Source: a virus
Direction: 5' to 3' (one strand)
Length of the DNA stretch: 50,496 nucleotides
IMG/VR virus record: IMGVR_UViG_3300034069_000710
Span: 1-50,496 of that record
Part shown: piece by piece, positions 1-50,496 of the stretch
How the letters are laid out: each line of letters opens with the position of its first letter
Numbering within the stretch: position 1 is the first letter of the stretch
Notes under the pieces: generated by a model
The model's database searches: none
What the model was told of the DNA's origin: nothing
Seen by the model: only the letters and a program-made list of their open reading frames with translations
Position numbers and translations under genes: made by a program

Positions 1-141
1 ATTGCGGGCTTGGTCTACAGGTCCCCGTTGCGCCTACGATTGTCGCGCTATTTGCAGTGCTGCTCGTGCGGCTCCTCGTGTGGACGCGTTCGCAATCGAT
101 CCTTTGGAATGTTGCCGTCTGCCTCCTTGCGATGCTCGCAG
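1..141. repeat. Terminal direct repeat, copy 1 (identical to 50356..50496); the contig closes on itself
   Basis: Read directly: attgcgggcttggtctacag...ttgcgatgctcgcag occurs at both window ends in the same orientation. Confidence 0.95.
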
Positions 142-4798: not shown

Positions 4799-5908
4799 TT
4801 AGGCCATCATGCCGTTGGCGCGCATCGTCTCGTCGGTCCACCCCGCGGCAAGCATTGCCTCGTAGGTAGCACCGCCGGCGGGGGGCAGCATGACCGGCCC
4901 GGCCGGCACCGGAGCGGGCGGTGCGAACGGCGGAAAGCTAGAAGGGGATGCAGTCGTCGCCGAGGGTGCCATGGGGGGCGCGGCAGGCGTCACGGGTGCC
5001 GGCGCCGCAGCGGGGGCAGGTGCCGGTGCGTTTCCCATGTAGCCATTGTACGGCGGGGGCGGCGGGCTAGCCGAGGCCGCAGGAGGGGCAACCGGCGCAG
5101 CAGCCGGTACAACCGGAGCCGGTGCAACGGGCGTCGCAGGCGCGGCGCCCGATGGGGCCAAAGGGGCAGCCGGGGCACCACCGGCGGGCGGCGTGATCGG
5201 GGCGGCCGTAGCGCCCGCCGGCAGGGCGACGGGGCCACCACCGAACGCTGCGCTCGCATCCGGGCCGCTCACGATTTCCGGGCCGAACGCGGACAACTCG
5301 ATCATATCAAGATTGAGGTAAATGCCCGGCTTCGAAATGTTGCCATTGCCCTCGGTCGATCCCGACACGCGGATATAGAAGCCGCGGCGAATGACCTTTT
5401 TTTCCTGGATTTGCTCGGCGGCTGCATAGCGCCCAGCATGGAAGCACCGCGGCGGGTAAGCCGAGCCAAACTTCACGACCCAACAACCCGCAAAGCCTTC
5501 CTTGTCGGCATTGTTGATAAGCTTCCCCTCGTGAATGTACGAGGAATCGCCATCCTGCACTTTCCACGAAAAGTCGCCCATGACCCACGGCATGGTATGG
5601 CCCGGCGGCGGCTGCGTGAACCACGCCTGCGGGCCGCCCGCGCCAATGATCGCGTCGATACCATGCGGGAACAGGCTCGGGAAGTCGGCGAAGGCCTGGC
5701 GCACCAGAACCTCCCAGAATGCGGGCCACGCAGCGTCATTCTTCGCGACCGCACCGCCGAGGTAGAACTGCGGGTTCGGCTGACCGGCATTGGGGCCCGA
5801 CTTCACGACACGCAAGTTGCCCTGCATATCCTTGGTTTGCGCCTCGTCGACGTCGCCCTGCACCATCCGCATAACTGGGGTGGTGAATCTCGTTTTTGCC
5901 ACGTGCAT
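4799..5908 (-). CDS. ssDNA-binding protein, T7 gp2.5-like (DUF2815-type) core with a ~130-aa Pro/Ala-rich C-terminal extension
   Basis: GFYIRVSG...GIYLNLDMIELSAFG parallels the gp2.5 segment ending ...LVELATFGGG. Sits between a DUF2800-type nuclease and PolA, a module I recall from other phages. AGGAG RBS. Confidence 0.6.
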   Translation of the reverse strand: MHVAKTRFTTPVMRMVQGDVDEAQTKDMQGNLRVVKSGPNAGQPNPQFYLGGAVAKNDAAWPAFWEVLVRQAFADFPSLFPHGIDAIIGAGGPQAWFTQPPPGHTMPWVMGDFSWKVQDGDSSYIHEGKLINNADKEGFAGCWVVKFGSAYPPRCFHAGRYAAAEQIQEKKVIRRGFYIRVSGSTEGNGNISKPGIYLNLDMIELSAFGPEIVSGPDASAAFGGGPVALPAGATAAPITPPAGGAPAAPLAPSGAAPATPVAPAPVVPAAAPVAPPAASASPPPPPYNGYMGNAPAPAPAAAPAPVTPAAPPMAPSATTASPSSFPPFAPPAPVPAGPVMLPPAGGATYEAMLAAGWTDETMRANGMMA

Positions 5909-7083: not shown

Positions 7084-7421
7084 GCCAGAACCAGCCGACC
7101 GCGACGAGACATCCCTAGGACGGCTCGGGAAGTTTGCGTTTCGGAGTCGAAAACTCCCAAGTCTCGCGGGCCGATTCCGTAGAACCGCGCCGCCTGGCGC
7201 TCACGGTTGCTAGCTTCCTGCCGCAGCCGGCGAGCAATCTCGCGTTCGCCTAGGTGGCTGTAGGGGGCGAGTGACCCCCCGCTACTGCGGTAACCCCGCT
7301 TTTGCCGCTGCAGATGGCGCTTGATATTCTCCGCGCCATAGATTTTCCGCACTTCGATAGCGCGGTCGACCGACGCGGAGAGAGCGGCAAGGCCAATCCC
7401 GCCAAGGATCGAGCCGCGCAT
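7080..7421 (-). CDS. Hypothetical protein (113 aa, basic)
   Basis: ATGA overlap with the downstream nuclease gene and a 1-nt overlap with the upstream gene indicate an operon member. Confidence 0.55.
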   Translation of the reverse strand: MRGSILGGIGLAALSASVDRAIEVRKIYGAENIKRHLQRQKRGYRSSGGSLAPYSHLGEREIARRLRQEASNRERQAARFYGIGPRDLGVFDSETQTSRAVLGMSRRGRLVLA

Positions 7422-8254
7422 TAGCCGACCACCGGCAGGAGGGCGTCGAACGCGGGCACGAGGTCCGGCCGCGTGATAAGATCACGGACGCCCGAGATAC
7501 CGAGCGCGGCCGAAATCTCGGCCGTCTGCTCGACGCTCAGATTGCCGCCGGCCTGCAGCCCCGTGATCTTGCGCATAAGCTCGGCGAACGTGCTTGCCGG
7601 AGCACTAGCTGCAGTCGTGGCAGCGGCCGGTCCAGGCGCCGTGGCGGCAGCGGGCGGCGTAGGCACGGGCGCAACTGGCGCAGCCATCGGGACCGGTGCA
7701 ACGGGCGCCGGCGGGACGGGAGGGGCAGGCACGGGTGCGACCGGGGGGAGGGGTGCCGCGGGCGCCTCCGTGGCGGGGGCGGCAGGAGCACCGAGCGCGG
7801 CGCGCAACTCGGCCTCGACGGCGGCCACGGTTTCGGTCGTCACGCCGACCTTTTTCCGCCACGAGCCATCGGCGACGGTGGTTTTCGTGCCGGCGTGAAT
7901 GCGGCCGTCCCACGGCAACCCATTCTTATCGACCGGGACGCCGCCGGGGTTCGGCAACGTGGCAGGGCCCGAGGTCGGAGTCGCCGTAGAACCAACCGGT
8001 TCCGCCGCAGTAGTCGCAGTATCCGCCTCGGGGGCAATAGGGCCCGCGCCGAAAGCCGCCGCAGCGTCGGGGCCATCCTCGGTCGAGGGCGGCGCGGGCG
8101 GGGTCGGGGTGGCCGGTGGTGCGGGCGGCGTGGGAGCCGGGGGCGTCGGGGTAACGTTTGGCTGTCGGATGTCAGGCTCGCCGCGCAAATGCGCGATCAT
8201 GGCGGCAACAGCGGCCAATTCTGCCGCGTTCCCGGTATCGAAATGAATTTGCAT
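7421..8254 (-). CDS. Hypothetical Pro/Ala-rich protein (277 aa), first gene of the leftward operon
   Basis: Start moved to ATG 8254 (MQIHFDT...) because it is preceded by a perfect AGGAGG. The longer track ORF start at 8335 runs into the palindromic operator. Confidence 0.6.
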   Translation of the reverse strand: MQIHFDTGNAAELAAVAAMIAHLRGEPDIRQPNVTPTPPAPTPPAPPATPTPPAPPSTEDGPDAAAAFGAGPIAPEADTATTAAEPVGSTATPTSGPATLPNPGGVPVDKNGLPWDGRIHAGTKTTVADGSWRKKVGVTTETVAAVEAELRAALGAPAAPATEAPAAPLPPVAPVPAPPVPPAPVAPVPMAAPVAPVPTPPAAATAPGPAAATTAASAPASTFAELMRKITGLQAGGNLSVEQTAEISAALGISGVRDLITRPDLVPAFDALLPVVG

Positions 8255-8295
8255 CGTGTCGCCTCCTATGTTGACGAGGAAGCCATACGCGGGCA

Positions 8296-8311
8296 TTGAC
8301 GGCGCCGTCAA
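8296..8311. promoter_or_regulatory. Perfect palindrome TTGACGGCGCCGTCAA in the divergent region between the leftward and rightward replication operons
   Basis: Seen directly. It is a member of the recurring TTGAC-N6-GTCAA family. On the minus strand it is followed 18 nt later by TATGGC, then AGGAGG and ATG 8254. Confidence 0.6.
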
Positions 8312-8336
8312 CTTTATTTTGCGAGCCCCCGCCACC

Positions 8337-15479: not shown

Positions 15480-16093
15480 CCGAGTACCGCACGTTTCGGA
15501 GCGCAGATTGCGACCACCCGATGGATTTGGCTTGTCCAAATTGCCTGCGTCTGCCGGTGCTCGACCTCGAAACCTATTCGTCCGCTCAACTGAAAGGTCC
15601 GAATATGCAGCCCCGTGACGAAAGCGACGGCGATTATATCGACCGCATGCAGCGCACCAAGCTTGGAACCGTCGGCAAGCCCGTTCCGCCATTGCCGCCT
15701 TCAGCGCGAGCGCAACTTGCCTCGGCTAACAAGCTCGTCGACGAAACCGACGCAGAATTTAACGCGCGGCTTGATAAGGCATTTGGGGTTCAGCCTTTGC
15801 CGGGAGCACCCGGAGCTATTGTTAGCGGGGATGCGTGGACGCCATTGCCCTGCGATAAGCCGATACCACGCGCCCCCATCGCGCCGGGCGTGCTGATCGA
15901 TGACGACGAAACGCGGGTTTATGTGTCGCGCAAGGTGGCGCGGTGGGCCGGAGCGCTGGCGCTCGTCGCCGGCGGTGCCTCGATCATGTATGCCGAGGCG
16001 CAGCATCATGCGATGCCGGGTGTTGGTTTCGCGGTCGGCCTGGCGATGATCGTGGGCGCGGCGCTGCTTGCAACTCACGAGGTGCAATCATGA
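15476..16093 (+). CDS. Hypothetical protein with C-terminal membrane anchor
   Basis: ATGA coupling. C-terminal hydrophobic stretches WAGALALVAGGASIMY and GFAVGLAMIVGAALLA. Confidence 0.6.
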   Translation: MTEYRTFRSADCDHPMDLACPNCLRLPVLDLETYSSAQLKGPNMQPRDESDGDYIDRMQRTKLGTVGKPVPPLPPSARAQLASANKLVDETDAEFNARLDKAFGVQPLPGAPGAIVSGDAWTPLPCDKPIPRAPIAPGVLIDDDETRVYVSRKVARWAGALALVAGGASIMYAEAQHHAMPGVGFAVGLAMIVGAALLATHEVQS

Positions 16094-17334
16094 TCGGTAA
16101 CGACGCGGGGGAGCTGACGGCATCGCTGTGGCTGGAACGTGCTGAGAAGCACAACCCTAAATTGCCAACGCCGGGTAGCCCAATGGCGGCTGACATTGCT
16201 GTGGAAATGGAGGAATATGCTAACCAGAAGTTGGCTGCTTTCCTTCGCGCGCAATCTACCCCAGCAAGCACTGGCGTGCTGGTGGAGGCGTTAATCGAGA
16301 AATACATGCCGCTGGGCTTTTCGTTAACCGCGGACATGAGAGCTGCTGCCGTTGAAGATTTGACGGACGATATCGCGGCATTGCGTAGAAACGATCAGGC
16401 AGAAACTATCGAAGTTTGCGCGCAAATTGCTGATCGAATGATGGGCCCCGGCAACATGGTCGGACAAACTATTCGCAACCGCCAAGCCCCCTCAATAACC
16501 GCCATGCCCGCGAGCGATGGAGTGACGTTGGAAGAGCGAGATCCGCATCCCGAGCAGGTCGAGGCGGCGAATTTGCCCAAGCATTTACGCGGCCTTCATG
16601 CGCAGTTTGCACGCATAGCCACGCTGGTCGAGGCGATCCGACACGCGCTGCAATGCACGCCACACGTGAAAGTCATTCGCGGTGAGCAGGACAACCCCGT
16701 TTTCACCGTAATGTATGATTGCGGCGATCCTTGGGAAATTCTCCGCCAAGCCCTCTCAACAACCGCCACGCCCGCGAGCGATGGGGAGCGGTGGCGCCAC
16801 CTGAAGCGCGGCACCGAATACCGGGTGATTGCGCGCGGCGAGTTGCAGGCCAGTAGCGATGCCTTGGTCGATGGCTCGTCGATGGTGATCTACCAGGGTG
16901 ACGATGGGCGCGTCTGGGTTCGCGAAGAAGGCGAGTTTGAGGACGGACGCTTTGAGCGCCTTCCTCCTCAGCCCGAGGGGGTGAAGCGCCCTGCCGATGA
17001 TGGGAAGCGGGAGGCAATCCGCGCCGAGATCATCAACACGCCGGAGACAGCCGACTTCATGGCCGGTGTTCCAATAGAGGCAGCGCACCAGCGTGAGCGT
17101 TGGGGATCAAGCCATGACGCCGGGAAGAAGCCGGAGGATTGGTTCTGGCTGATCGGCTACCTGGCGCAAAAAGCCCTCCGCGCGCAGAACGCTGGCGACA
17201 CCACCAAGGCGCTGCACCACACGATCAGCACGGCAGCGGCGCTGGGCAACTGGCATGCGGCCATCGCGGGTGTCGATACGTCCATGCGGCCGGGCATCCT
17301 GCCTCCCCAGCCCGAGGGGGTGAAGCGGCCATGA
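16090..17334 (+). CDS. Modular protein: helical N-terminus, DUF1653-like domain, all-alpha C-terminal domain, separated by repeated linker peptides
   Basis: ATGA coupling at 16090. WRHLKRGTEYRV...VIYQGDDGRVWVRE...RFERL matches my memory of DUF1653. In-frame DNA repeats at 16479/16743 and 16963/17302. Confidence 0.6.
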   Translation: MIGNDAGELTASLWLERAEKHNPKLPTPGSPMAADIAVEMEEYANQKLAAFLRAQSTPASTGVLVEALIEKYMPLGFSLTADMRAAAVEDLTDDIAALRRNDQAETIEVCAQIADRMMGPGNMVGQTIRNRQAPSITAMPASDGVTLEERDPHPEQVEAANLPKHLRGLHAQFARIATLVEAIRHALQCTPHVKVIRGEQDNPVFTVMYDCGDPWEILRQALSTTATPASDGERWRHLKRGTEYRVIARGELQASSDALVDGSSMVIYQGDDGRVWVREEGEFEDGRFERLPPQPEGVKRPADDGKREAIRAEIINTPETADFMAGVPIEAAHQRERWGSSHDAGKKPEDWFWLIGYLAQKALRAQNAGDTTKALHHTISTAAALGNWHAAIAGVDTSMRPGILPPQPEGVKRP

Positions 17335-26578: not shown

Positions 26579-26995
26579 ATGACCGCGTGCATTACCCTTT
26601 GGCAGCCGTATGCCTCGCTGATTTTCAGCGGGCACAAGGTGTTCGAGACGCGCGGCTTCCGCTATCCGTCGAAATTAGGGGGGCAGCGGCTCGCCATTCA
26701 CGCGGCCAAGCGACCGCTGGCGCAATGCGGCGTATCGACCGGGCTCGACCAACTTTGCCGAGAGGTGTTCGGGCCTGATTACGCGGCTACCTTGCCGCGG
26801 GGTGCGCTGCTCGGGTCCGGTCTATTGGCCGGGTGCTTCTCGACCGATGATTTGCGGCCATTCATTAATCGCGAGGATGATTTGACCGGAGATTTCCGGC
26901 CCGGCCGGTTTGCGTGGCTGCTAGAGGATATCCAAGCACTCGCCGAGCCGCGACCGATGAATGGCAAGCAAGGATGGTCGACCGTTGACCTTTGA
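26579..26995 (+). CDS. ASCH (PUA-like) domain protein
   Basis: CITLWQPYASLIFSGHKVFETRGF...RLAIHAAK fits the ASCH N-terminal pattern. Confidence 0.6.
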   Translation: MTACITLWQPYASLIFSGHKVFETRGFRYPSKLGGQRLAIHAAKRPLAQCGVSTGLDQLCREVFGPDYAATLPRGALLGSGLLAGCFSTDDLRPFINREDDLTGDFRPGRFAWLLEDIQALAEPRPMNGKQGWSTVDL

Positions 26996-28640
26996 TTTCC
27001 GCAATCCTGACTACCGCGAGGTTTTCGCGCAGCGAGCCGAGCGCCTGCAATGGCTGCGTGACGATCCGACCGGGCAACGCCTCACCAATGTGCGGGCGTT
27101 CTATGCGACCGACGAGGGCATTGCGCATTTTATCAACGACTGGGGGATGACGTTCGACCCGCGCAACGCCGACGTGGGCCTGCCGACGGTCATCCCGCTT
27201 ATTCTGTTCCCCAAGCAATGGGAGTTCATCGCGTGGAGCCTCGACCTATGGCGCCGGCGTGAACCTGGCGCAGCCGAGAAGTCGCGCGATTTTGGCCTAT
27301 CGTGGCTGGCGGTCGCCATGTCGGCGTCGCTTTGCTTGTTCCGCGAAGGGCTACAAATCGGGTTCGGGTCGCGCAAAGAGGAATACGTAGACTCGACCAA
27401 AAGCCCGAAAGCGTTGTTCTGGAAAGGCCGACAATTCCTGCAGTTGCTGCCGCCCGAATTCCGCAACGGGTGGACGCTGAAAGACGCCGCGCATATGCGG
27501 ATCGACTTTCCGGCGACGGGCTCGGTTATGACCGGCGAGGCGGGTGACAACATCGGCCGCGGCGACCGCGCTAGTATCTATTGGACAGACGAGGATGCGC
27601 ACCTAGAACGACCGCAGCTTATCGAGGCGTCGCTATCGCAGACGACGAATTGCCGCATCCGCATTTCGACCCCCAAGGGCCGCGCCAATCCTTTCGCGAT
27701 CAAGCGCCACGACCCGGAATGGATCGCGCGCGGGCGGATATTCACGGCGCATTGGCGTGACGACCCGCGCAAGGATGACGAATGGTACGAGCGGCAGCAG
27801 CGCGACCTCGATTCGATCACGCTCGCGCAGGAGGTCGACCTATCGTACGACGCCTCGGCCGTTGGCATCGTTATTCCGCAGGCTTGGGTGCAATCGTGTA
27901 TCGACCTGCATAAAAAGCTTGGGTTCGAGGTCCGCGGCGCGCGCGTGGGCGCTTATGATCCAGCCGACGAGGGCGACGCGTGCGCCTTTGCGGACGCCAC
28001 GGGCATCCTCGTAAATTCCGTCACCTCGTGGTCGGGAAAGGGGTCTGACACGCTCGCGAGCACGCAAAAAGTATTCGCCCTTTGCGACGTGCTCGGTATC
28101 GACGAATTCGACTACGATTCCGACGGGCTCGGCGCGGGCGTGCGCGGAGATGCGCGCAGCATCAACGAGGGCCGCAAGCGCAAGATTGAGGCGCGCGCCT
28201 ATCGCGGGTCGGGGGCCGTTGCCAATCCCGACAAGCCGATACCGGACGCCGCACCGCGTAACGAGAAGAAACTGCCGGGCGAAATCGTGCGGTTGAATGC
28301 CGATTATTTCGAGAATGCCAAGGCGCAGGCCTGGTTCGAGGCGCGCGCCCGTTTCCAGCGCGGGCACCGGGCGTTGCAAATGCACCTGCGTGGCGAGGAA
28401 TGGCGCGACGCCTATCCGCCCGACGACCTGATTTCGCTGAATAGTGCCATGCCTGAGCTAGGCGCGCTGTGCCCGCAGCTATCGCAGGCGACGTTCACGC
28501 AATCCAAGTCGGGCAAAATGATGATCGACAAGACGCCCGACGGCGGCCAATCGCCGAACCACGCGGATAGCGTTGTCATCCGCTACGCTCCCGCGCGCAA
28601 AAAGGGCCGGGCGTACAAATGGGACGCTTGGAAAAGCTAG
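26961..28640 (+). CDS. terL: Terminase large subunit
   Basis: FPKQWEFI, AEKSRDFGLSW (ATPase loop region) and IYWTDEDAH (Walker B-like). 559 aa, directly upstream of the portal region. Confidence 0.85.
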   Translation: MASKDGRPLTFDFRNPDYREVFAQRAERLQWLRDDPTGQRLTNVRAFYATDEGIAHFINDWGMTFDPRNADVGLPTVIPLILFPKQWEFIAWSLDLWRRREPGAAEKSRDFGLSWLAVAMSASLCLFREGLQIGFGSRKEEYVDSTKSPKALFWKGRQFLQLLPPEFRNGWTLKDAAHMRIDFPATGSVMTGEAGDNIGRGDRASIYWTDEDAHLERPQLIEASLSQTTNCRIRISTPKGRANPFAIKRHDPEWIARGRIFTAHWRDDPRKDDEWYERQQRDLDSITLAQEVDLSYDASAVGIVIPQAWVQSCIDLHKKLGFEVRGARVGAYDPADEGDACAFADATGILVNSVTSWSGKGSDTLASTQKVFALCDVLGIDEFDYDSDGLGAGVRGDARSINEGRKRKIEARAYRGSGAVANPDKPIPDAAPRNEKKLPGEIVRLNADYFENAKAQAWFEARARFQRGHRALQMHLRGEEWRDAYPPDDLISLNSAMPELGALCPQLSQATFTQSKSGKMMIDKTPDGGQSPNHADSVVIRYAPARKKGRAYKWDAWKS

Positions 28641-29101: not shown

Positions 29102-31066
29102 ATGAGACTGCAACATATCAAGGATGGCTTGGCCAACCTCTATAGTCGCCTCGGCACCGGGGCCGACCGCAACACGCAGTCGATTTATTCGGTCCCGATG
29201 ATCCCGCAGCAGCAAATTGAGGCGGCTTATCGTTCGTCGTGGCTGGCTCGCAAGGTTCACGACCTGCCCCCGTTTGAGATGACGCGCGAGGGGCGCCGGT
29301 GGGGCGCTACCAAGGAACAAATCGAAGCGCTCGAGGCGTACGAGACCCGCGTGGGTCTATGGCCGAAGTTGTGCGAGGCGATCACGGTGGCCCGGCTGCA
29401 TGGCGGCGGCGCCATAATCGCGGGCGTGCGCGCCGGTGGCTCGGCAGACCCGACAAAGCCGCTGGACGTCACCCGCGTCGGCAAGGACGGCCTGCGCTAC
29501 TTATTCGTCGTGAGCAAAAGCCAACTCTCCGCGCCTAACGGCATGGAACAGGACCCGGAAAGCGATTTTTACCGCCAGCCGGCAATGTATCAAATCGAGG
29601 GCCGGGGCGGCGGCAATATTCAAATTCACCCGTCGCGCGTGTTCCCGTTCAAGGGCAAGCCGCTGCCGCCCGGCATGCTCACAATGTCGGCGTGGGATCA
29701 ATTTTGGGGAGATCCGCTCCTAGTCTCGATCAAGTCGGCAATTGATAACGCTGAGACGTCGCAGGCAGCGGTCGCGACTATCCTGCACGAAATGAAGCAG
29801 GATGTTATCACGATCCCCGGACTTACCGAGCAGATTGGAACCGAGGAAAGCGAGAACCTTATTGCCGCCCGCGTCGAGGCGGTGGCGCGCTTTAAGTCGA
29901 TGTTCAACGCGTTGCTGCTCGATGGCGGCGACGATGAAGGCAACGGCAAAGAGGAATGGGAGACGCGGCAGCTATCGTTCGCGCAACATCCCGAATTGCT
30001 GCGCGCATTCCTCGGCGTGGTCGCCGGCGCCGCCGATATTCCCGTGACCCGGCTTATGGGCGAAAGCCCGGGGGGCATGAATTCGACCGGCAAGGGCGAA
30101 CAGGACGATTTCGACCGGATGATTGGCGCGCAGCAGGGGTTCGAAATCCGTCCCAACCTGCAACGCCTCGACGAAATTCTAATTCGCGCAGCGCTCGGCA
30201 CCCGGCCGCCCGAAATTGTTTGGAAGTTTTCGGCGCTGCGTCCGGTCGACGAGTCCCAAGCCGCCGAGATCGAAAACAAGGAGGCCGATAGCGTCACCAA
30301 AATCGCCTCGTCGGCGCTCGTACCCTCGGTCGCGCTCGCAAAGGCCGTGCAAAACCGCATGGTCGAAAGCGGTCGGTGGCCGGGGCTCGACAAGGCGCTC
30401 GAGGAAGCCGAGGCCGCGGGTAAGCTGCCCCCCAAGGTGGCGGGAGAGGAAGACAACGGCGCCGAGCCCAAGCCCGAGCCGGTACTGCCCGCCGCGAACG
30501 ACAACACGCTGCAGCAAAAGGCCGAGGCGCTGCAAAAGCGGGGCACCGTCACGCGGGACCAGGCAATTGCGCTTATTGCCGACGCTGCGCCGCGCCCCCT
30601 CTACGTGCGGCGTAATCTCACCAACGGCGCCGAGTTCATCGCGTGGGCCAAGGCGCAGGGATTCGAAACCACGCTGCCGGCCGATGACCTGCACGTGACT
30701 ATCGCCTATAGCCGCCAGCCGGTCGACTGGATCAAGGCGGGGTCGGATTCTTGGGGCGGCGACGACGACGGCAATCTGCGCATCGTGCCTGGCGGCGCGC
30801 GACTCGTAGAACCGCTCGGCGACAAGGGGGCTATCGTGCTCCTGTTCGCCTCGTCGCGCCTCACGTGGCGGCACGAGGATATCAAGCGCGAGGCGGGCGC
30901 ATCGAACGATTACGACGAATATCAACCGCACGTCACCATCACGTACAAAAAGCCGGAAGGGCTCGACCTGCGCAACGTGGAGCCGTACCGCGGCGCGCTC
31001 GAATTCGGGCCGGAGATTTTCGAGGAGATTACGGATAATTGGTCGGGTGATGTAACGGAGGAATGA
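29102..31066 (+). CDS. Portal protein (DUF1073-type) fused to a C-terminal 2H-phosphoesterase domain
   Basis: N-terminal DGLANLYSRLGTGADRN...YRSSWLARKVHDLPPFEMTREG fits DUF1073 portals. The last 157 aa carry LHVTIAY and PHVTITY (two HxTx motifs). Confidence 0.85.
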   Translation: MRLQHIKDGLANLYSRLGTGADRNTQSIYSVPMIPQQQIEAAYRSSWLARKVHDLPPFEMTREGRRWGATKEQIEALEAYETRVGLWPKLCEAITVARLHGGGAIIAGVRAGGSADPTKPLDVTRVGKDGLRYLFVVSKSQLSAPNGMEQDPESDFYRQPAMYQIEGRGGGNIQIHPSRVFPFKGKPLPPGMLTMSAWDQFWGDPLLVSIKSAIDNAETSQAAVATILHEMKQDVITIPGLTEQIGTEESENLIAARVEAVARFKSMFNALLLDGGDDEGNGKEEWETRQLSFAQHPELLRAFLGVVAGAADIPVTRLMGESPGGMNSTGKGEQDDFDRMIGAQQGFEIRPNLQRLDEILIRAALGTRPPEIVWKFSALRPVDESQAAEIENKEADSVTKIASSALVPSVALAKAVQNRMVESGRWPGLDKALEEAEAAGKLPPKVAGEEDNGAEPKPEPVLPAANDNTLQQKAEALQKRGTVTRDQAIALIADAAPRPLYVRRNLTNGAEFIAWAKAQGFETTLPADDLHVTIAYSRQPVDWIKAGSDSWGGDDDGNLRIVPGGARLVEPLGDKGAIVLLFASSRLTWRHEDIKREAGASNDYDEYQPHVTITYKKPEGLDLRNVEPYRGALEFGPEIFEEITDNWSGDVTEE

Positions 31067-31668
31067 CGGTGGCCGCCACGCAGATTGTCTACGATCAACT
31101 CGGCCGCCCGTACGAAGCGCTGCCGGTCGACGCCCCCACGCAAGCGCAACTTGACGCCGTGGCGCAGGCTATCCCCAGGGCGGCCACCACCGTTCCCAAA
31201 ACGGAAATGCCGGGAGGTAAAGCTGGCGATGATACGCAGCGATTTGCAACCGCGGACCACGCGCACCCCCGCGTGACGAGCACCACGGTAGGCACCGTGC
31301 AGTCGGGCAATACGGCCGTGGTCGAGTTTACGCGGACGTTCACCGCCGAACCGGGAATCAACTACTCAGAATTGCCGGCGACCGCCGACACGACCGCCGC
31401 CCCGGCGGCCGATACGAGCGCCACCGCGCAGCCGACCACGCACAAGGTCATCGCCTGGACGAAAGGGCCAACTGCCACCCTACCGAACGCGGCCGCTACG
31501 GCGTACACCGGGTGCACGGTGCGGGTCTACAAAGCGCAGACGGTGCCGCAAAATCTTGTCAATCTCCTGCTCGGCGGCGTGTTCAACCTGTTCGGGGCGA
31601 GCGTCGTCGGCACGCGCTTCTCGATCATTGCTGTTGCGCGCAGCGACGTGAACGCGACAACCCCGTGA
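31063..31668 (+). CDS. Hypothetical virion-module protein (201 aa)
   Basis: ATGA coupling to the portal stop. Thr/Ala-rich. Confidence 0.6.
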   Translation: MTVAATQIVYDQLGRPYEALPVDAPTQAQLDAVAQAIPRAATTVPKTEMPGGKAGDDTQRFATADHAHPRVTSTTVGTVQSGNTAVVEFTRTFTAEPGINYSELPATADTTAAPAADTSATAQPTTHKVIAWTKGPTATLPNAAATAYTGCTVRVYKAQTVPQNLVNLLLGGVFNLFGASVVGTRFSIIAVARSDVNATTP

Positions 31669-32498
31669 AAATCGACCTAGCCGGGATTCTCAAGGCCGCC
31701 GGAAAAACCCGGCAACGCTATGTCGTGGGCCGCGCAATTGTGCCGACGTCTGCGCAGGAGCAAGCGCTGCGTGTTATCTATATGCGGGTTGTACGCGGGT
31801 GGCTCGACGAGTGGGCCAACCGCATTTTGCCTGCCTATCGTCGTTCACTCGAGGCGCTGCCAGTTATCGGCGATTCGGTCGATAGCACACAAGATACTGT
31901 CGACGAGGCAAACGACGTGCTTACCCGGCTCGTGCTGTCGCTCGGCGCCGACCTCGAGGATTGGGCGGTGCGGGTTGAGCAATGGCACCGCAAGCAATTC
32001 GCCTCGTCGTTTACCGCGGCGGGCGTAAAGCTCGATACGCTGCTAGGCCCGGCCGAGGCAAAGGTGACGCTCGAGGCCACGCTAGCGGAAAATCTCTCGC
32101 TCATTCGTTCGCTTAACGATCAGCAGCGCAACGGGATTTCCGGGGCCGTGTTCCGCGGGCTCAACAATCGCACGCCCGCGCGCGACGTGGCCCGGGAAAT
32201 TCGCAAGGTTGCCGAGGTCGGACAAAGCCGGGCCGAGTTGATCGCGGCCGACCAATTGCAAAAGCTATCCGGTCGGCTCGATCAGGAGCGGCAGCAGCAG
32301 GTCGGCGCCGACGAATTCGATTGGGTGCATAGCGCCAAGCGCTATCCGCGGATTGAACACCTCGAGCGCGACGGCAAGCGCTTTGCATGGAATAGCCCCG
32401 TGGGCCGCGACGATCCCCCAGGCCGTGCAATTCGCTGCGGCTGCCGCGCGCGCCCCGTGATCGACCTCGAAAAGTTGCTTGCGCAGGGTGACGACTAA
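31665..32498 (+). CDS. Head morphogenesis protein (Mu F / SPP1 gp7-like)
   Basis: EHLERDGKRFAWNSP...DPPGRAIRCGCRARP fits the Phage_Mu_F C-terminal motif. GTGA-coupled start at 31665. Confidence 0.7.
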   Translation: MKIDLAGILKAAGKTRQRYVVGRAIVPTSAQEQALRVIYMRVVRGWLDEWANRILPAYRRSLEALPVIGDSVDSTQDTVDEANDVLTRLVLSLGADLEDWAVRVEQWHRKQFASSFTAAGVKLDTLLGPAEAKVTLEATLAENLSLIRSLNDQQRNGISGAVFRGLNNRTPARDVAREIRKVAEVGQSRAELIAADQLQKLSGRLDQERQQQVGADEFDWVHSAKRYPRIEHLERDGKRFAWNSPVGRDDPPGRAIRCGCRARPVIDLEKLLAQGDD

Positions 32499-32561: not shown

Positions 32562-33902
32562 ATGATCGTTTTTCGCGACACGGCTACCATCAAGGGCGGA
32601 ACGGGCACCATCACGCCCGAGGGCTACTTTGTCGCCGACGCGCTCGTGGCGCGCGCGAACAATATTCAGGAGTACCGAGCGCGCGAACTAGGGCTTACCG
32701 ACCGGCAGCCCGACGACCTCGTGCGCGTGTTCCGCCCCGAGGCAGAGGTTTTCGCCGTCGATAGCCTGGCGACCGCCGCGCATATCCCGATCACGCTCGA
32801 CCACCCGCCGGTCATGGTCGACGCGCAGAACGTGCTCGAATATCGCCGTGGCGGCACGGGCGGGCAGGTGCTGCGCGACGGCGAATTCATGCGTATCCCC
32901 CTGCGTATCGAGGATGCCGGGGCGGTTACGAGCGTTCGGACGGAGCGCAAAGAATTCTCGCTCGGCTATGCGGCCGACTTGAAGCTAGAGGCGGGCGTTT
33001 TCGACGGGCAGGCGTACGACGCCAGCGTGACGAACATACGATACAACCACCTCGCCGCATGCCGGGCCGCTCGGGGCGGGCCGGAACTGCGTATTATCGA
33101 CGAACGCAGCGTGTTTAATGATACCGTCGCGGGTGCGAAAAAGTGGTTACTTAAAGCCATCGCCTTACACGAAAAACATATGGAAGGCAAAGCCCCCACG
33201 ACGGGCGTTGCGGGGGAAGCGAGCCAAAAACTAATGATGACGCAAATGCAAAATGCGTTGTCCGAAATCACTGGCAGCGCGCCCGACCGCACGCCGAAAA
33301 TGAAAATGGGAGATAACCTAATGCCGCATATCGTAGTGGTCGACGGCTTGCCGGTCGACGTGTCCAACCCTGAATCGGCCGCCGCGGTCGTTAAGGCCGC
33401 TATCACCGCGCGCGATACCGCGAACGGTGCGCTCGAGGCGTCGCAGACGGCGCTCACCACGGCGAACAACACGATTGCCGCCCGCGACGGCGAAATCGTC
33501 ACGCTCAAGGATTCGCTCGAAAAGGCGAAGCTGTCGCCGCAGGCCCTGCGCGACGCGGCCGGCGACTACGCCCGCGTGTCGGCAACCGCGAAGGCGCTCG
33601 GCGCCACCATCACCGATGCGATGGACGCGCAGCAGATTCGCGACGCGGCCGTGGCGCACAAGCTGCCCGGCAAGACCTACGCGACCGACGCCGAGCGCAA
33701 CGCCGTGTTCGACGTGCTCGCCGCGGCCGTGAAGCCGACCGGCCTGACCGACGCCGCGCCCGATCCGCTGCGCGCGTTGCTCGCCGACGGCCAGCCGACC
33801 ACGCTCGGCGACGCGCAGAGCAAGGCTGACCAGGCACGCAACGCGCGGTTCGCCCGTTTCGCCAACGCTCACACCGGCGCCACCGCCGGCGCCGCGCACT
33901 AA
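32562..33902 (+). CDS. DUF2213-type scaffolding / prohead-associated protein
   Basis: PEGYFVADALVARANNIQEYRARELG...VFRPEAEVFAVDSLATAAHIPITLDHP fits my memory of DUF2213. Ala-rich helical C-terminus. Confidence 0.6.
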   Translation: MIVFRDTATIKGGTGTITPEGYFVADALVARANNIQEYRARELGLTDRQPDDLVRVFRPEAEVFAVDSLATAAHIPITLDHPPVMVDAQNVLEYRRGGTGGQVLRDGEFMRIPLRIEDAGAVTSVRTERKEFSLGYAADLKLEAGVFDGQAYDASVTNIRYNHLAACRAARGGPELRIIDERSVFNDTVAGAKKWLLKAIALHEKHMEGKAPTTGVAGEASQKLMMTQMQNALSEITGSAPDRTPKMKMGDNLMPHIVVVDGLPVDVSNPESAAAVVKAAITARDTANGALEASQTALTTANNTIAARDGEIVTLKDSLEKAKLSPQALRDAAGDYARVSATAKALGATITDAMDAQQIRDAAVAHKLPGKTYATDAERNAVFDVLAAAVKPTGLTDAAPDPLRALLADGQPTTLGDAQSKADQARNARFARFANAHTGATAGAAH

Positions 33903-34449: not shown

Positions 34450-35394
34450 ATGGAAATCAATTTTCAGGACGCACAGCAGGCCCTCGGCTTCATCGCTCCG
34501 CAGTTGCTGCGCATCAATACCGAAATCGACCTGCAGGTTTACCCCTCGTTCGATTACTCGCGTCTGATGTTCGTTAATACCGATGGCGACATGTGGGACG
34601 TCGGCACCATCTTCTACTCCGGTGACGTCGCGGGTAAGGCGGAATGGCTGTCGCACAAGGGCTTCGATATGCCCTACGCGGATATCAGCACTTCGCAGTT
34701 CCTGCAGGGCTACCACTTCGCCGGCATCGGCTATGAGTGGTCGCTCGGCGAATTGCAGCGCGCCGCCAAGCTGAACCGGAACCTGGGCAACGAGAAGGCC
34801 GGCGCGGCTCGCAAGGTGGCCGAGGCCCGCGTTTACGGCGTCGCCATCCGCGGCGACACCGAAAAGGGCATGACCGGTATCGTGAACGACGCCAACGTGC
34901 CGGCCGCAACGGTCGCTGCCGACGGCACGGCGGGCGCCACCACGTTCGCCAGCAAGACCCCGACGCTTATCAACCGCGACATTAACGCGGTGCTGAACGC
35001 GCCGTTCAATGCCACCGGCGAAACCCATCGGGCGAACACGCTGCTGCTGCCGTCGACCCGGCTGCAGTATATGGCGTCGACCCCGCTCGCCACCGGCAGC
35101 GACACCACCATCCTCAAGTTCATCCGTGAGAACAATTCGTTCACGCTGGAAACCGGGCAGCCGCTTACCATCATCGGCACTCGGGAACTCGAGACCGCCG
35201 GCGCGGGCAACACCGCCCGCATGCTGGCGTACGACAACTCGCGCGAGGTCGTGCAATTCCACCTGCCCGGGCCGCACGAATTCCTGCCGGCTTTCCAAAA
35301 GTCGAGCATGACCTGGGAAGTCGCCGGGATCATGAATATCGGCGGCGTCGAGGTGCGACGGCCCAAGGCGATGGCTTACCGCGACGGCATCTAA
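34450..35394 (+). CDS. Major capsid protein (HK97-fold, DUF2184-like)
   Basis: 314 aa, RBS AGGGG, followed by a strong hairpin terminator, in the canonical position after scaffold and decoration genes. Confidence 0.75.
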   Translation: MEINFQDAQQALGFIAPQLLRINTEIDLQVYPSFDYSRLMFVNTDGDMWDVGTIFYSGDVAGKAEWLSHKGFDMPYADISTSQFLQGYHFAGIGYEWSLGELQRAAKLNRNLGNEKAGAARKVAEARVYGVAIRGDTEKGMTGIVNDANVPAATVAADGTAGATTFASKTPTLINRDINAVLNAPFNATGETHRANTLLLPSTRLQYMASTPLATGSDTTILKFIRENNSFTLETGQPLTIIGTRELETAGAGNTARMLAYDNSREVVQFHLPGPHEFLPAFQKSSMTWEVAGIMNIGGVEVRRPKAMAYRDGI

Positions 35395-47342: not shown

Positions 47343-49745
47343 ATGACCGCAGGAACCGACGCCCTCAAAACCGCATGGCGTGACTACCAGACCGAGGGTG
47401 TTCCTTCTTCCGGCCCTCGCGAGCCGCAGAAATGGGAAATTCGTGCCGCGTTCGACCGCCTGTCACTCGATCTCGCCGCCGCGGCTGCGTCTGCCGGGGG
47501 AGCAGGTATCGCCGCAATCGTCGCCGCGGTTCAACCGGTCGCCGATGCGGCTGCCGCGTCGGCGGTCAAGTCGCAGACCTCGGCGGATTCCGCGGCGTCT
47601 TATGCTGATTCGATTGCCGAAACGAACGCAATTGTCGGGGCGCCCGTGCCTATTGCTCGTGGGCATGCAATCATCAACGGCACGTTCAATACAGGCGGGA
47701 CTAATACGACCCGTGCGTGGACGCTGCTAGTTCCCGAGAGTGGGTATCTACAGGCCGTAAATGTATACGTCGGAAAAACGGGAACGCTTACCGCGTCCGT
47801 GCTCGACCCGACCGGGAAAGTTGTCTACTCTCTCGACCTCGTAGCCGGGTCGACGGGGCCGGTTCGATTTCCGCTCCCCAAGCAACTATTCATTGCCGCT
47901 TTTTCTCGCGTTGTGCTGACGGAAAACGCCGGTAAGATCACATATCAGAATAGTGGTTCCGACGTTGTTCTCGCTGTTGCCGGGCCGCATGCAGTAGGCG
48001 AAACTCCTACTCAAACCACCGTCGTCGCTACTTCATCCTTCAATTATGAGGCGGTAATACTTCCGTCGGTCCCCGTTGCTCAGGCGGCAACGATTTCTCA
48101 GGCTGATTTTGACGCCCTGCGTTTGAGCATCCGTCCCATAAGCATGCGGACAAATAGCGCGGGCAACGTGATCGTGACGTATCTCGACGGCACGACGCAA
48201 AATCTCGGCGCTATTAACACGGATCGTATCCCCCTCGGTTCGTTGATCTATGCAGCGGACGACCCCGCCCCTGGCTTTGGCTCGCCTATGCTTTTCTCTC
48301 GCCTGCCGGATAACGGAGGGCTGGTGGTGACGGCGGCCAACGGCGCGAACGTTCCCGCCTATCGCAAGTCGCACGCGGCGAACCCGGCCGTTCTAACGTT
48401 CGGCGACCTCGTGTTTATGTACTTCCGTGTAGACCCGGGCACCAACGTGCAATCTATTGCGCTTTGGACGCAACCTATTGCGGGGTTCGACCCGCTCAAT
48501 CTGTCGCGTTGGACCGACCGCGGTGTGGTCGTCGGCGTGCCGACGGGTGCGGCGTACGATGGCACGTGGGACCCGTCGGCAATCGTTTTCAAGGGAAAGG
48601 TGCGGCTATACTGGCAGAGTCACACGGGCACCGGCAACCTGTTTACGGCCGAAAGCGCAGACGGGATTACCTTTTCAGCCGCCGTCAACACGGGCGTGCA
48701 GCAGGCCGGCGCCCCTACCGTTACGGCGGTCGGCGATACGGCATATGCGTTCTACGGCAGCACGGGCGCCAATCCGCAAGGGTTGGTCGTCCGCACGTCT
48801 GCGGATGGCGTCGCTTTCAGTGCGCCCTCCGCGGCGCCTGTGATCGCCTCGGCTGGCAATGCCTATGCTGCCGATGGGGCTCAAATCGTCACCTCGCGTT
48901 TCTTCTACCAGGCGCCATACCTTTACATGCTGTACGGGGGCACCCCTCAGGGCCGAGGGGGTAGTTCGCCCTTGGATTGGCCCGAGGGAATTTGTTTGGC
49001 TCGCGCCGTGGCGCCGTTCACGGCCTGGGAAAAGCATCCCTCTAACCCCGTGTTCCTGCGCGGCCCGATTGGCGCATTTGATGCGGCCGCTCTGTGGTCG
49101 GGATCGTATCTCCGGATCGGTGGTGTTTCGTATATGTTTTACGAGGCCATGGGCGGGAGCGACGTAGGCAGCCGGGACAATTCGTATCAGGGTTTCGGCT
49201 CTACTGCGTTTTCGCAGATCGGCGTTGCGCGCGCGCCGGTCGACGCGGTATTGTCCGATTGGTCGCCAGACGTGAACGACCTTCCCCCGGGCGTTTACAC
49301 CATACAAAACGTCCATAGCGGAAAGTTTTTGGGCGTCTCGTCGGCCGATCAGAGCGCAATCGTTTGCCAGTATTCGGCGCCGCAACGCTGGATCGTGCAG
49401 CGCGGTAGCGACGGTTTCTATATCCTTTCGTTGAAATCGGCGGGCGCAATCGGCGCGCAGCTTCTAACCAATCCGAACGCGTCACGGACGCCCGGCGCTA
49501 ATCCGAACGTGTACCCCTCGTCGAGCGCGTACCCGACTCCGCCGGTTACGCCGCAGGAATTCAAGTTGGTGCCGCAGCTTGCCCTCGCGGCGGGGGAGGG
49601 CGTGTACGGAATAGTAAACCGGTGGAACGGGCTTGATATGGAGCCTGTCTCGCCCACGCGGGCGGAAGCGGCGCAAATTGCCTTTAGCCTGCCGAATGGT
49701 CATACTCGGCAGAAGTGGCGGTTTACAAAGGTGGCGGACGCATGA
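47343..49745 (+). CDS. Tail fibre / receptor-binding protein with beta-propeller glycosidase-like central domain and C-terminal ricin-type (QxW) lectin domain
   Basis: RBS GAGGAAG. WDPSAIVFKGKVRLYWQSH and GVSYMFYEAMGG resemble propeller-type glycoside hydrolases. The C-terminus has QRW and QKW motifs in a trefoil-like spacing. Confidence 0.6.
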   Translation: MTAGTDALKTAWRDYQTEGVPSSGPREPQKWEIRAAFDRLSLDLAAAAASAGGAGIAAIVAAVQPVADAAAASAVKSQTSADSAASYADSIAETNAIVGAPVPIARGHAIINGTFNTGGTNTTRAWTLLVPESGYLQAVNVYVGKTGTLTASVLDPTGKVVYSLDLVAGSTGPVRFPLPKQLFIAAFSRVVLTENAGKITYQNSGSDVVLAVAGPHAVGETPTQTTVVATSSFNYEAVILPSVPVAQAATISQADFDALRLSIRPISMRTNSAGNVIVTYLDGTTQNLGAINTDRIPLGSLIYAADDPAPGFGSPMLFSRLPDNGGLVVTAANGANVPAYRKSHAANPAVLTFGDLVFMYFRVDPGTNVQSIALWTQPIAGFDPLNLSRWTDRGVVVGVPTGAAYDGTWDPSAIVFKGKVRLYWQSHTGTGNLFTAESADGITFSAAVNTGVQQAGAPTVTAVGDTAYAFYGSTGANPQGLVVRTSADGVAFSAPSAAPVIASAGNAYAADGAQIVTSRFFYQAPYLYMLYGGTPQGRGGSSPLDWPEGICLARAVAPFTAWEKHPSNPVFLRGPIGAFDAAALWSGSYLRIGGVSYMFYEAMGGSDVGSRDNSYQGFGSTAFSQIGVARAPVDAVLSDWSPDVNDLPPGVYTIQNVHSGKFLGVSSADQSAIVCQYSAPQRWIVQRGSDGFYILSLKSAGAIGAQLLTNPNASRTPGANPNVYPSSSAYPTPPVTPQEFKLVPQLALAAGEGVYGIVNRWNGLDMEPVSPTRAEAAQIAFSLPNGHTRQKWRFTKVADA

Positions 49746-50312: not shown

Positions 50313-50496
50313 GTGTCTCCTGTAACCAAGGCCTGCGCGGGCGTCGCAGGAATTTATTGCGGGCTTGGTCTACAGGTCCCCGTTGCGCCTACGATTGTCG
50401 CGCTATTTGCAGTGCTGCTCGTGCGGCTCCTCGTGTGGACGCGTTCGCAATCGATCCTTTGGAATGTTGCCGTCTGCCTCCTTGCGATGCTCGCAG
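50313..50496 (+). CDS. 5' part of the junction-spanning holin-like ORF (continues at nt 3..323 through the terminal repeat)
   Basis: GTG 50313 lies 10 nt after AAGGA. The reading frame runs into the repeat and is the same frame as track ORF 57..323. Confidence 0.55.
   Translation, partial: MSPVTKACAGVAGIYCGLGLQVPVAPTIVALFAVLLVRLLVWTRSQSILWNVAVCLLAMLA
50356..50496. repeat. Terminal direct repeat, copy 2 (identical to 1..141)
   Basis: Read directly. Confidence 0.95.

Follow-up and report, generated by a model that had tools for sequence, protein, structure and literature searches.

Acb1 of the T4-like phages is a free-standing 2H phosphoesterase of around 150 residues. It is dedicated to the cyclic oligonucleotide-based anti-phage signalling system (CBASS), as Apyc1 is to the pyrimidine cyclase system for anti-phage resistance (Pycsar), and its characterised forms do not accept cA4. 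Hobbs et al. (2022; PMC9117128) assigned its catalytic tetrad to H44/T46/H113/T115, stacking interactions to Y12, W74, F107 and W147 and an adenine contact to E141, and described a C-terminal lid. Fusions of 2H domains to phage head proteins have been treated separately, by Iyer, Burroughs, Anand, de Souza and Aravind (J Bacteriol 2017; PMC5512222), who reported 2H domains joined to MuF or portal proteins and proposed them to be degraders of the nucleotides made by nucleotide-activated defences. Here we describe a stretch of viral DNA of 50,496 nucleotides (IMG/VR virus record IMGVR_UViG_3300034069_000710; the whole stretch is called the window below) in which one gene encodes a 654-residue portal protein ending in a module that is assigned, with strong support from profile matches and a structural model, to the Acb1 family.

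In a later paper Iyer et al. (2022; PMC9503650) took such fusions to suggest packaging in the head and injection against SMODS (second messenger oligonucleotide or dinucleotide synthetase)/CBASS, cyclic-mononucleotide and CRISPR signalling. A first reading of the window, made from its letters alone (the sequence-only reading), knew of no described portal-2H fusion; the two papers do describe such fusions. The proposed injected counter-defence role has been in print since 2017, and the window protein is a metagenomic case of a widespread known class. It has the same architecture, and the same proposed role of a packaged, injected and degrading enzyme, as the portal-2H and MuF-2H effectors that these authors group among ‘polyvalent proteins’; its relatives likewise bear ADP-ribosyltransferase and Zeta-toxin domains, and the fused effector is likewise encoded in the head module. 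The differences are that the earlier papers either came before this subfamily was assigned to Acb1 or make no use of that assignment, and that the window protein is the minimal, two-domain form.

The portal fusion goes unmentioned in the Acb1 discovery paper (PMC9117128), in a 2026 review and in the paper on the Pam3 virion structure (PMC9942802). A survey of viral 2H phosphodiesterases (Doherty 2025) reports extra domains on 13 of 75 enzymes, with the portal not named among them, and neither portal nor DUF1073 is mentioned in its supplements. The fusion is also visible in precomputed Pfam annotations, in one protein name at NCBI and in PHROG 146.

The portal protein and its C-terminal module

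The gene is uninterrupted from its ATG start to its stop codon, which is included in the coordinates given here. Its parts are the following.

29102..31066, plus strand: portal-Acb1 fusion gene, 654 residues, matching PF06381 and PF23474, and the ‘portal protein’ profile PHROG 146 over residues 4-648; an identical protein (P0116) is present in the public collection
29210..30301, plus strand: portal core, residues 37-400 (Phage_portal_3, formerly DUF1073; TIGR01555), from Pfam, TIGR01555 and homology to the Pam3 portal 8hds
30422..30592, plus strand: linker, residues 441-497, from per-block conservation in 119 fused homologues; the Pam3 alignment begins at about residue 480
30593..31063, plus strand: predicted Acb1-family 2H phosphodiesterase domain, residues 498-654, from PF23474, an AlphaFold (AF2) model, Foldseek and BFVD
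30692..30700, plus strand: first HxT motif, H531-V-T533, corresponding to H44/T46 of T4 Acb1 in an alignment to RB14 gp57B
30929..30937, plus strand: second HxT motif, H610-V-T612, corresponding to H113/T115 of T4 Acb1 in the same alignment
31022..31063, plus strand: C-terminal segment with E641 and W647, aligned through RB14 gp57B with the Acb1 ‘lid’ as defined by Hobbs 2022

The N-terminal part shows the properties expected of a portal. PF06381 matches residues 37-400 with E = 5.7e-91 (305 bits) and TIGR01555 scores 196.8 bits against a cut-off of 196.25; a large terminase gene lies upstream, MuF and major capsid protein genes lie downstream, and there is homology to the Pam3 gp3 portal, which is seen as a dodecamer in its virion. 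At the other end, the Pfam entry ‘Anti-CBASS protein Acb1’ (PF23474) matches residues 499-648 over profile positions 2-142 of 144, with E = 1.1e-37 and 129.4 bits (cut-off 27), and the isolated module does so with E = 3.9e-39 and 134.1 bits. As a profile comparison, this match lies far beyond chance. The open reading frame (ORF), its DUF1073-type portal core, an acidic linker rich in Ala, Pro and Glu, and a 157-residue module starting at nucleotide 30593 (residue 498) had all been proposed in the sequence-only reading, and ORF, Pfam and conservation data confirm each of them. So, too, were the two HVT motifs, which are found in the sequence where they had been placed: the His codon of LHVTIAY is the CAC at 30692-30694 (H531) and that of PHVTITY occupies 30929-30931 (H610), 79 residues further on. 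The variable, indel-rich part of the linker covers residues 441-480. Conservation returns from about residue 481 (GTVTRDQAIALIADAAPRP), and the stretch from there on probably belongs to the module.

Four independent lines of evidence (profile scores, sequence searches, structure and key residues) place the module in the Acb1 family in particular. The Acb1 model scores some five times its Pfam cut-off, unlike the general 2H models, which stay below theirs: PF13563 (2_5_RNA_ligase2) reaches 15.8-20.4 bits against 27 and PF02834 (LigT_PEase) 15.9 against 23.3. A phmmer search of PDB sequences matches Acb1 of Erwinia phage FBB1 (7t26/7t27; E = 4e-8), T4-like gp57B proteins are reached directly by tblastn and BLASTP at about 30% identity, and pairwise BLASTP against RB14 gp57B, the orthologue of T4 Acb1, gives E = 4e-13. 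An AF2 model of the module, built from an alignment of 74 sequences, has a mean predicted local distance difference test (pLDDT) score of 93.8, falling to about 85 at the extreme C-terminus, and a predicted template modelling (TM) score of 0.88; a single-sequence run of residues 468-654 gave a pLDDT of 40 and was discarded. Foldseek, which had been suggested along with the original prediction as a check of the fold, finds a 2H fold, the best PDB matches being 7t26 and 7t27 (probability 1.0, E = 7e-9, TM 0.70/0.79). A phosphodiesterase of Burkholderia phage BCSR5 comes next and is followed by LigT (TM about 0.55-0.62), while the top matches of the model in BFVD carry the name Acb1. Membership of the 2H superfamily, as first proposed, is thereby borne out and can be narrowed to the Acb1 family by PF23474, phmmer, Foldseek and the residues discussed next.

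The 2H fold and the HxT/HxT tetrad are common to the module and to Acb1 (T4 gp57B; FBB1 7t26/7t27; PF23474). When the module is aligned to RB14 gp57B, the tetrad H44/T46/H113/T115 falls on H531/T533/H610/T612, and four of the five contact residues are kept in what is a sequence-only alignment: the N-terminal stacking tyrosine (Y12 to Y501), the aromatic residue before the second HxT (F107 to Y604), the adenine-contact glutamate (E141 to E641) and the lid tryptophan (W147 to W647). Among 74 family members, Glu occupies the E641 position in 45 and Trp the W647 position in 60. The features of a C-terminal lid like that of Acb1 are present as well, the module being the end of the polypeptide and its lid tryptophan, W647, being conserved. 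The module differs from characterised Acb1 in being about 27-31% identical and in having a glutamate, E570, at the position of W74 in this alignment, a residue shared by 55 of the 74 members; the part of W74 may be played by another residue, such as the near-invariant W543 or R567, which is invariant. It differs from the free enzyme, too, in being covalently attached to a portal C-terminus and in that its activity and substrate range are predictions.

Conservation was then assessed in 119 full-length fused homologues of 53-84% identity, as identity to the window residue. Each histidine of the tetrad is kept in 99% of them and each threonine in 97%, and the module is as well conserved as the portal core (0.63 and 0.67, respectively). 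The only poorly conserved part is the linker at residues 441-480 (0.19-0.31, with gaps in 18-39%), conservation being 0.71 at residues 481-500. The retention of the tetrad, together with conservation at the level of the core, places the enzyme under purifying selection, and the module is very probably active as such.

2H enzymes are not confined to second messengers, and the domain might instead act on RNA: as a 2',3'-cyclic phosphodiesterase healing ends after attack by an anticodon nuclease or toxin, as a Usb1-like RNase, or as a 2'-5' oligoadenylate phosphodiesterase. The superfamily takes in LigT, cyclic phosphodiesterases and Usb1, LigT structures are among the Foldseek matches, Acb1 homologues go under the name ‘RNA ligase’ in PHROG 755 and in many GenBank entries, Iyer 2017 (PMC5512222) listed an RNase role as one possibility, and some phage 2H structural groups were inactive on messenger panels (Doherty 2025). 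We nevertheless regard an RNA substrate as improbable. The Acb1 profile is far stronger than LigT and 2_5_RNA_ligase2, Acb1 is the best structural match, and the stacking and adenine-contact residues of Acb1 and its lid tryptophan are conserved. Neither an RNA ligase nor Pnkp was seen among the window ORFs scanned, a scan that left out some small ORFs, and, according to Iyer 2017, an association with RNA ligases is never seen for 2H domains of this kind. With the LigT, or 2'-5' RNA ligase, type the module shares the superfamily and the pair of catalytic motifs, but it falls under the Pfam cut-offs, is without an RNA-ligase partner and has contacts and a lid specific to Acb1. RNA repair, the alternative put forward in the sequence-only reading, is accordingly the weaker proposal.

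Since the module is an Acb1-family 2H enzyme, a role against cyclic oligonucleotides, and hence against CBASS, is its best-supported biochemical reading. We consider it highly likely, from family membership, that it cleaves adenosine-containing cyclic di- and trinucleotides as Acb1 does. Such cleavage would be metal-independent and would break the 3'-5' bond 3' of adenosine in signals such as 3'3'-cGAMP, cUA, cAAA and cAAG by way of a 2',3'-cyclic phosphate intermediate. The two HxT motifs would provide acid-base catalysis, the tryptophan-bearing C-terminal lid would shut over the ligand, and CBASS effectors would be silenced. The messengers of CBASS, Pycsar and type III CRISPR had all been named as possible targets. 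Only the first keeps its place, on the strength of Acb1 membership, while the other two are speculative and less likely since cA4 is not a substrate of characterised Acb1 and the two nucleases, Acb1 and Apyc1, each serve against a separate class of defence system.

Distribution of the fusion and its other partners

The portal-Acb1 fusion is common, not rare. By tblastn, 32 cultured-phage records cover at least 80% of the 654-residue query. Among them are the Rhizobium phages RHEph04-06, a large number of RHph_ isolates, Sinorhizobium phage HMSP1-Susan, Aminobacter phage Erebus, the Pseudomonas phages phiPSA1, MR15, psageK9 and psageB2, Synechococcus phages Ssp-JY39 and Yong-M2-251, and Pseudanabaena phage Pam3; the cultured carriers are annotated solely as portal, head or hypothetical protein. 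In a collection of 5.8 billion proteins, PF06381 and PF23474 occur together in 120 of 120 full-length homologues among the matches listed. An exhaustive phmmer search with the module alone retrieves 1919 cluster representatives at E ≤ 1e-3, 510 of them at E ≤ 1e-30. Among the nearest 150 of the 1919, a complete PF06381 core precedes the module in 92, and another 17 are pieces of such proteins cut off by the end of a contig, so that at least 109 are portal-linked and the tether is stably kept. The PHROG 146 ‘portal protein’ profile itself contains the module, at positions 475-585, and one fragment bears the name ‘anti-CBASS protein Acb1 family protein’ at NCBI.

The portals of Pam3 (gp3; 8hds; PMC9942802), RHEph04-06, phiPSA1 and Ssp-JY39 resemble the window protein over their full length, at 35-39% identity, and have the same portal-linker-Acb1 layout. 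Pam3 gp3 is 35% identical, and its residues 453-614 align to the module with E = 3e-36. In contrast to the description given here for the window protein, portals of this group are annotated solely as portal, head or hypothetical, and the module of Pam3 is missing from the deposited model.

Related portals without the extension also exist: those of Stenotrophomonas phage CUB19, Xanthomonas phage Kintu and Acinetobacter phage Silvergun match only residues 6-427. The module is therefore accessory and dispensable for portal function. Among relatives of the module, fused copies predominate, and one gene that is truly free-standing was established, in a Roseococcus prophage (L004), two genes after a portal of the PF04860 family. 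In Synechococcus phage Yong-M3-232 (OM868076.1, L011 158-2144), the region consists of a portal ORF (158-1618) and an Acb1-like ORF (1593-2144) that overlap by 26 nucleotides in different frames, while its sibling Ssp-JY40 has one fused ORF; the split may stem from a frameshift introduced in sequencing, from true fission of the gene or from a programmed frameshift. Short module matches (up to 273 residues) were considered as candidates for further free-standing genes, but two of those looked up (L002 and L003, both metagenome contigs) were rejected, the terminase and portal genes there being fragmented as well. As a separate observation, one of these contigs (L002, JGI contig Ga0487874_19507), a noisy assembly, carries at 5668-5775 a 35-residue gene fragment matching PF24729 (Acb2_Tad1_hairpin), two genes downstream of the Acb1 piece. 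This hints at a nucleotide-sponge gene adjoining the portal-Acb1 gene on that contig.

These data bear on whether the extension matters as an enzyme at all. It might be a catalytically irrelevant appendage of the portal, one that decorates the crown, for instance, or helps to retain the DNA, or two genes might have been joined by an artefact of read-through. Many portals bear C-terminal barrels or crowns that are specific to a lineage. The two overlapping ORFs in one cultured phage record, and several database matches that look free-standing, would fit a read-through. We nonetheless reject both the structural-only and the artefact readings, on conservation and recurrence, and consider them very improbable. 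The tetrad and the domain are conserved as described above, the uninterrupted fusion recurs in hundreds of independent assemblies, in cultured phages and in isolate genomes, portals such as those of CUB19, Kintu and Silvergun do without the extension, and the two short metagenome matches are fragments of broken assemblies. The fusion in the window, likewise, is no assembly artefact, since the same uninterrupted layout is found in independent contigs of 53-84% identity, in cultured phages and in prophages of isolate genomes.

The same Acb1 subfamily is also attached to two further portal families, PF04860 and PF06074 (Portal_Mu), and a PF04860 portal-Acb1-MuF chain was found. Elsewhere the module is N-terminal on S78 prohead proteases and DUF2213 proteins, or stands behind ChaB domains. 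Longer chains include portal-Acb1-ADP-ribosyltransferase, portal-Acb1-Zeta toxin, portal-Pyr_redox_2-Acb1 and ChaB-Acb1-S78 protease-ADP-ribosyltransferase; these four, PF04860 portal-Acb1-MuF and Mu-type portal-Acb1 are represented by the proteins P0243, P0264, P0261, P0340, P0341 and P0360. BFVD holds 2H domains within actinophage ‘capsid morphogenesis’ proteins of about 1000 residues. The fusion partners are all head or head-morphogenesis proteins, a class generally located inside the procapsid.

Place and time of action

Our preferred explanation, to which we give a probability of about one half, is that the window encodes a genuine portal whose last 157-175 residues or so are a catalytically competent Acb1-family 2H phosphodiesterase, loaded in the head and injected. 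From inside to outside, the Pam3 portal consists of a barrel, then crown, wing and stem, and finally the clip (Yang et al. 2023; PMC9942802). Judging from this architecture, the portal C-terminus would face the head interior, so that up to twelve modules per procapsid or virion would lie on the capsid-interior side. The sequence-only reading had envisaged twelve copies in each virion at the DNA exit channel; the number can be kept, but the Pam3 order speaks against the location. Since the portal C-terminus lies inside the capsid, the module must be clipped and ejected if it is to reach the host. According to the mechanism we favour, the tether would serve to bring the enzyme into the head, as one of its internal proteins. 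While the head matures, a cut within the linker or close to it would release the enzyme, which would be co-ejected with the DNA, and nucleotide signalling in the next host would be pre-empted in the manner of T4 Alt and the internal proteins.

Delivery by this internal-protein route is our tentative preference, at a little short of an even chance. It is favoured because the tether recurs on several unrelated partners of the capsid interior, and does so alongside ADP-ribosyltransferase domains like that of Alt, the T4 prototype of which is packaged and injected. The complete scenario, in which all twelve domains are clipped at maturation, stored as internal proteins and co-ejected so that signalling is suppressed before any phage gene is expressed, is possible but somewhat more doubtful. 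If the mechanism holds, the closest parallels would be T4 Alt, IPI*, P1 Dar and the virion RNA polymerase of N4, all of them loaded in the capsid and delivered with the DNA. Those proteins differ in being packaged through targeting sequences or scaffold contacts, and their packaging and injection have been shown experimentally, while those of the module are proposed.

A number of points weigh against the preferred explanation. The Pam3 module is part of the deposited 8hds sequence (residues of about 453-614), yet 8hds is absent from the Foldseek matches in spite of about 45% identity, and the module is therefore not in the deposited portal model; it may be either flexibly tethered or removed. 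A module left uncleaved would stay in the empty capsid outside the cell, where it could not act after injection. No conserved protease or cleavage motif is evident in the linker of the 119 fused homologues, which is too variable to show one. All of the architectures could be explained by loss of stop codons between adjacent late genes in an order portal-acb1-MuF/protease, and unfused states do exist, in the Roseococcus prophage and in the split of Yong-M3-232. Data on activity, virion proteomics or ejection for portal-fused members were not found in the literature searched. The exact substrates are uncertain, given E570 at the W74 position and a substrate range that varies between 2H subgroups; according to Doherty 2025 specificity differs from one structural group to another, the group containing Acb1 being broad in range. 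Finally, T4 Acb1 activity and CBASS killing are both late, which fits action in the cytoplasm with no need for packaging.

This last point leads to a quite different proposal, in which the enzyme acts essentially only in the producing cell, late, as part of portal monomers or dodecamers or in empty procapsids that small nucleotides can enter. The fusion would then ensure late co-expression or be a neutral merger, and the copies in the virion would be a by-product that never reaches the next host. Activity of T4 Acb1 appears about 15 min after infection, coincident with the late onset of CBASS, and the portal is a late protein, made at twelve copies per progeny particle, which by our estimate outnumber the twelve incoming copies by about two orders of magnitude. 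For both reasons, an enzyme at work in the producing cell has to be taken seriously as an alternative to the claim of the sequence-only reading that the enzyme is present before any phage gene is expressed. The genomic setting of unfused Acb1 would suit it as well. Hobbs 2022 (PMC9117128) called a bacterial Acb1 homologue prophage-borne if a structural or packaging gene lay within three genes; the RB14 gene is flanked by a gene for a tail-fibre chaperone and one for an internal head protein; and the unfused copies of the Roseococcus prophage and Yong-M3-232 adjoin portal genes. The module is, moreover, unresolved in the Pam3 virion. Difficult to reconcile with this proposal are the repeated appearance of the tether, which joins the module to portals of three unrelated families as well as to MuF and prohead proteases, together with Alt-like ADP-ribosyltransferase and Zeta-toxin domains, and the predominance of the fused state, which persists down to 53% identity. 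We hold exclusive action in the producing cell to be a possibility of some weight, on the doubtful side. The two routes are compatible, however, and newly made late portal, a far larger pool, very probably degrades signals in the producing cell as well, even if the internal-protein route that we prefer is correct.

Genome surroundings and wider meaning

The fusion gene lies in a head module of canonical make-up, with the following neighbours.

26961..28640, plus strand: large terminase, the upstream neighbour (PHROG 2, E = 1.6e-20)
31063..31668, plus strand: 201-residue ORF between the portal and MuF-like genes, starting with an ATG that overlaps the stop of the portal gene (ATGA); neither Pfam nor PHROG gives a match
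31512..32498, plus strand: MuF-like head morphogenesis protein (PHROG 324, E = 1.3e-47; PF04233, Phage_Mu_F)
32562..33902, plus strand: DUF2213 protein (PF09979, E = 1.2e-42), annotated by PHROG as head maturation protease (PHROG 530, E = 4.5e-67)
34450..35394, plus strand: major head protein (PHROG 264, E = 3.1e-76)

The order is thus large terminase, portal-Acb1, 201-residue ORF, MuF, DUF2213, a decoration-type protein and the major head protein, with tape measure and fibre genes further downstream. The real start of the MuF-like gene is probably downstream of 31668. The DUF2213 protein is a candidate processor of capsid-interior proteins. The position taken up by the 201-residue ORF (31063-31668) is filled by extra cargo domains in related phages. 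The other half of the genome encodes a family-A DNA polymerase, a DUF2800 PD-(D/E)XK nuclease, a helicase, a DNA methylase, a primase-polymerase/helicase and the small terminase. The latter (PF03592; 20756-21607) is followed only about 5 kb downstream by the gene for the large terminase, and several small unannotated ORFs separate the two, which are usually adjacent.

An identical direct repeat of 141 nucleotides is present at both ends of the window (1-141 and 50356-50496), and the contig with the identical protein in the public collection is exactly 50,496 nucleotides long. The window is therefore most likely the whole genome of a phage, assembled as a circle of about 50.36 kb (about 50,355 bp). 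A megablast search with 20 kb of the window against cultured phages found no close cultured relative at the DNA level. Prophages that carry fused relatives are found in Methylocystis, Pseudomonas reidholzensis, Mesorhizobium, Brevundimonas and Rhizorhapis, so that the host is probably a proteobacterium.

Three further features of the window were noted. A GC-rich family of 55-nucleotide repeats with 65-71% identity (5091-5145 and 7614-7734) lies inside minus-strand ORFs without Pfam match (4799-5908 and 7421-8335), where it probably encodes low-complexity repeats of Ala/Gly/Pro type. Two direct repeats of 42 nucleotides, 93% identical and 264 nucleotides apart (16479-16520 and 16743-16784), are found inside an ORF without family match (15943-17334). 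Lastly, the distal tail protein of 800 residues (47343-49745, plus strand) has a ricin-type beta-trefoil lectin domain (PF14200) near its C-terminus, which suggests binding to a carbohydrate receptor.

All characterised anti-CBASS and anti-Pycsar proteins of which we know are thought to be made after infection. A published prediction of something different now gains experimental handles, in the form of a solved virion structure and of fusion-bearing phages in culture, among them Pam3, phiPSA1 and the RHEph group. What the present analysis adds is a firm tie to Acb1, the abundance of the fusion and a set of cultured carriers, including that solved virion, in which the module is unmodelled. Pipeline labels have helped to obscure the class, as ‘portal’ and ‘Acb1 family protein’ each hide one half of the fusion protein. 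If the module were found to be clipped and co-ejected, it would be the first experimentally demonstrable virion-delivered anti-CBASS enzyme. Phages with a capsid-loaded Acb1 would then deliver signal-degrading enzymes along with their DNA, and the strategy known from Alt, the internal proteins and Dar would be extended to immunity based on nucleotide second messengers.

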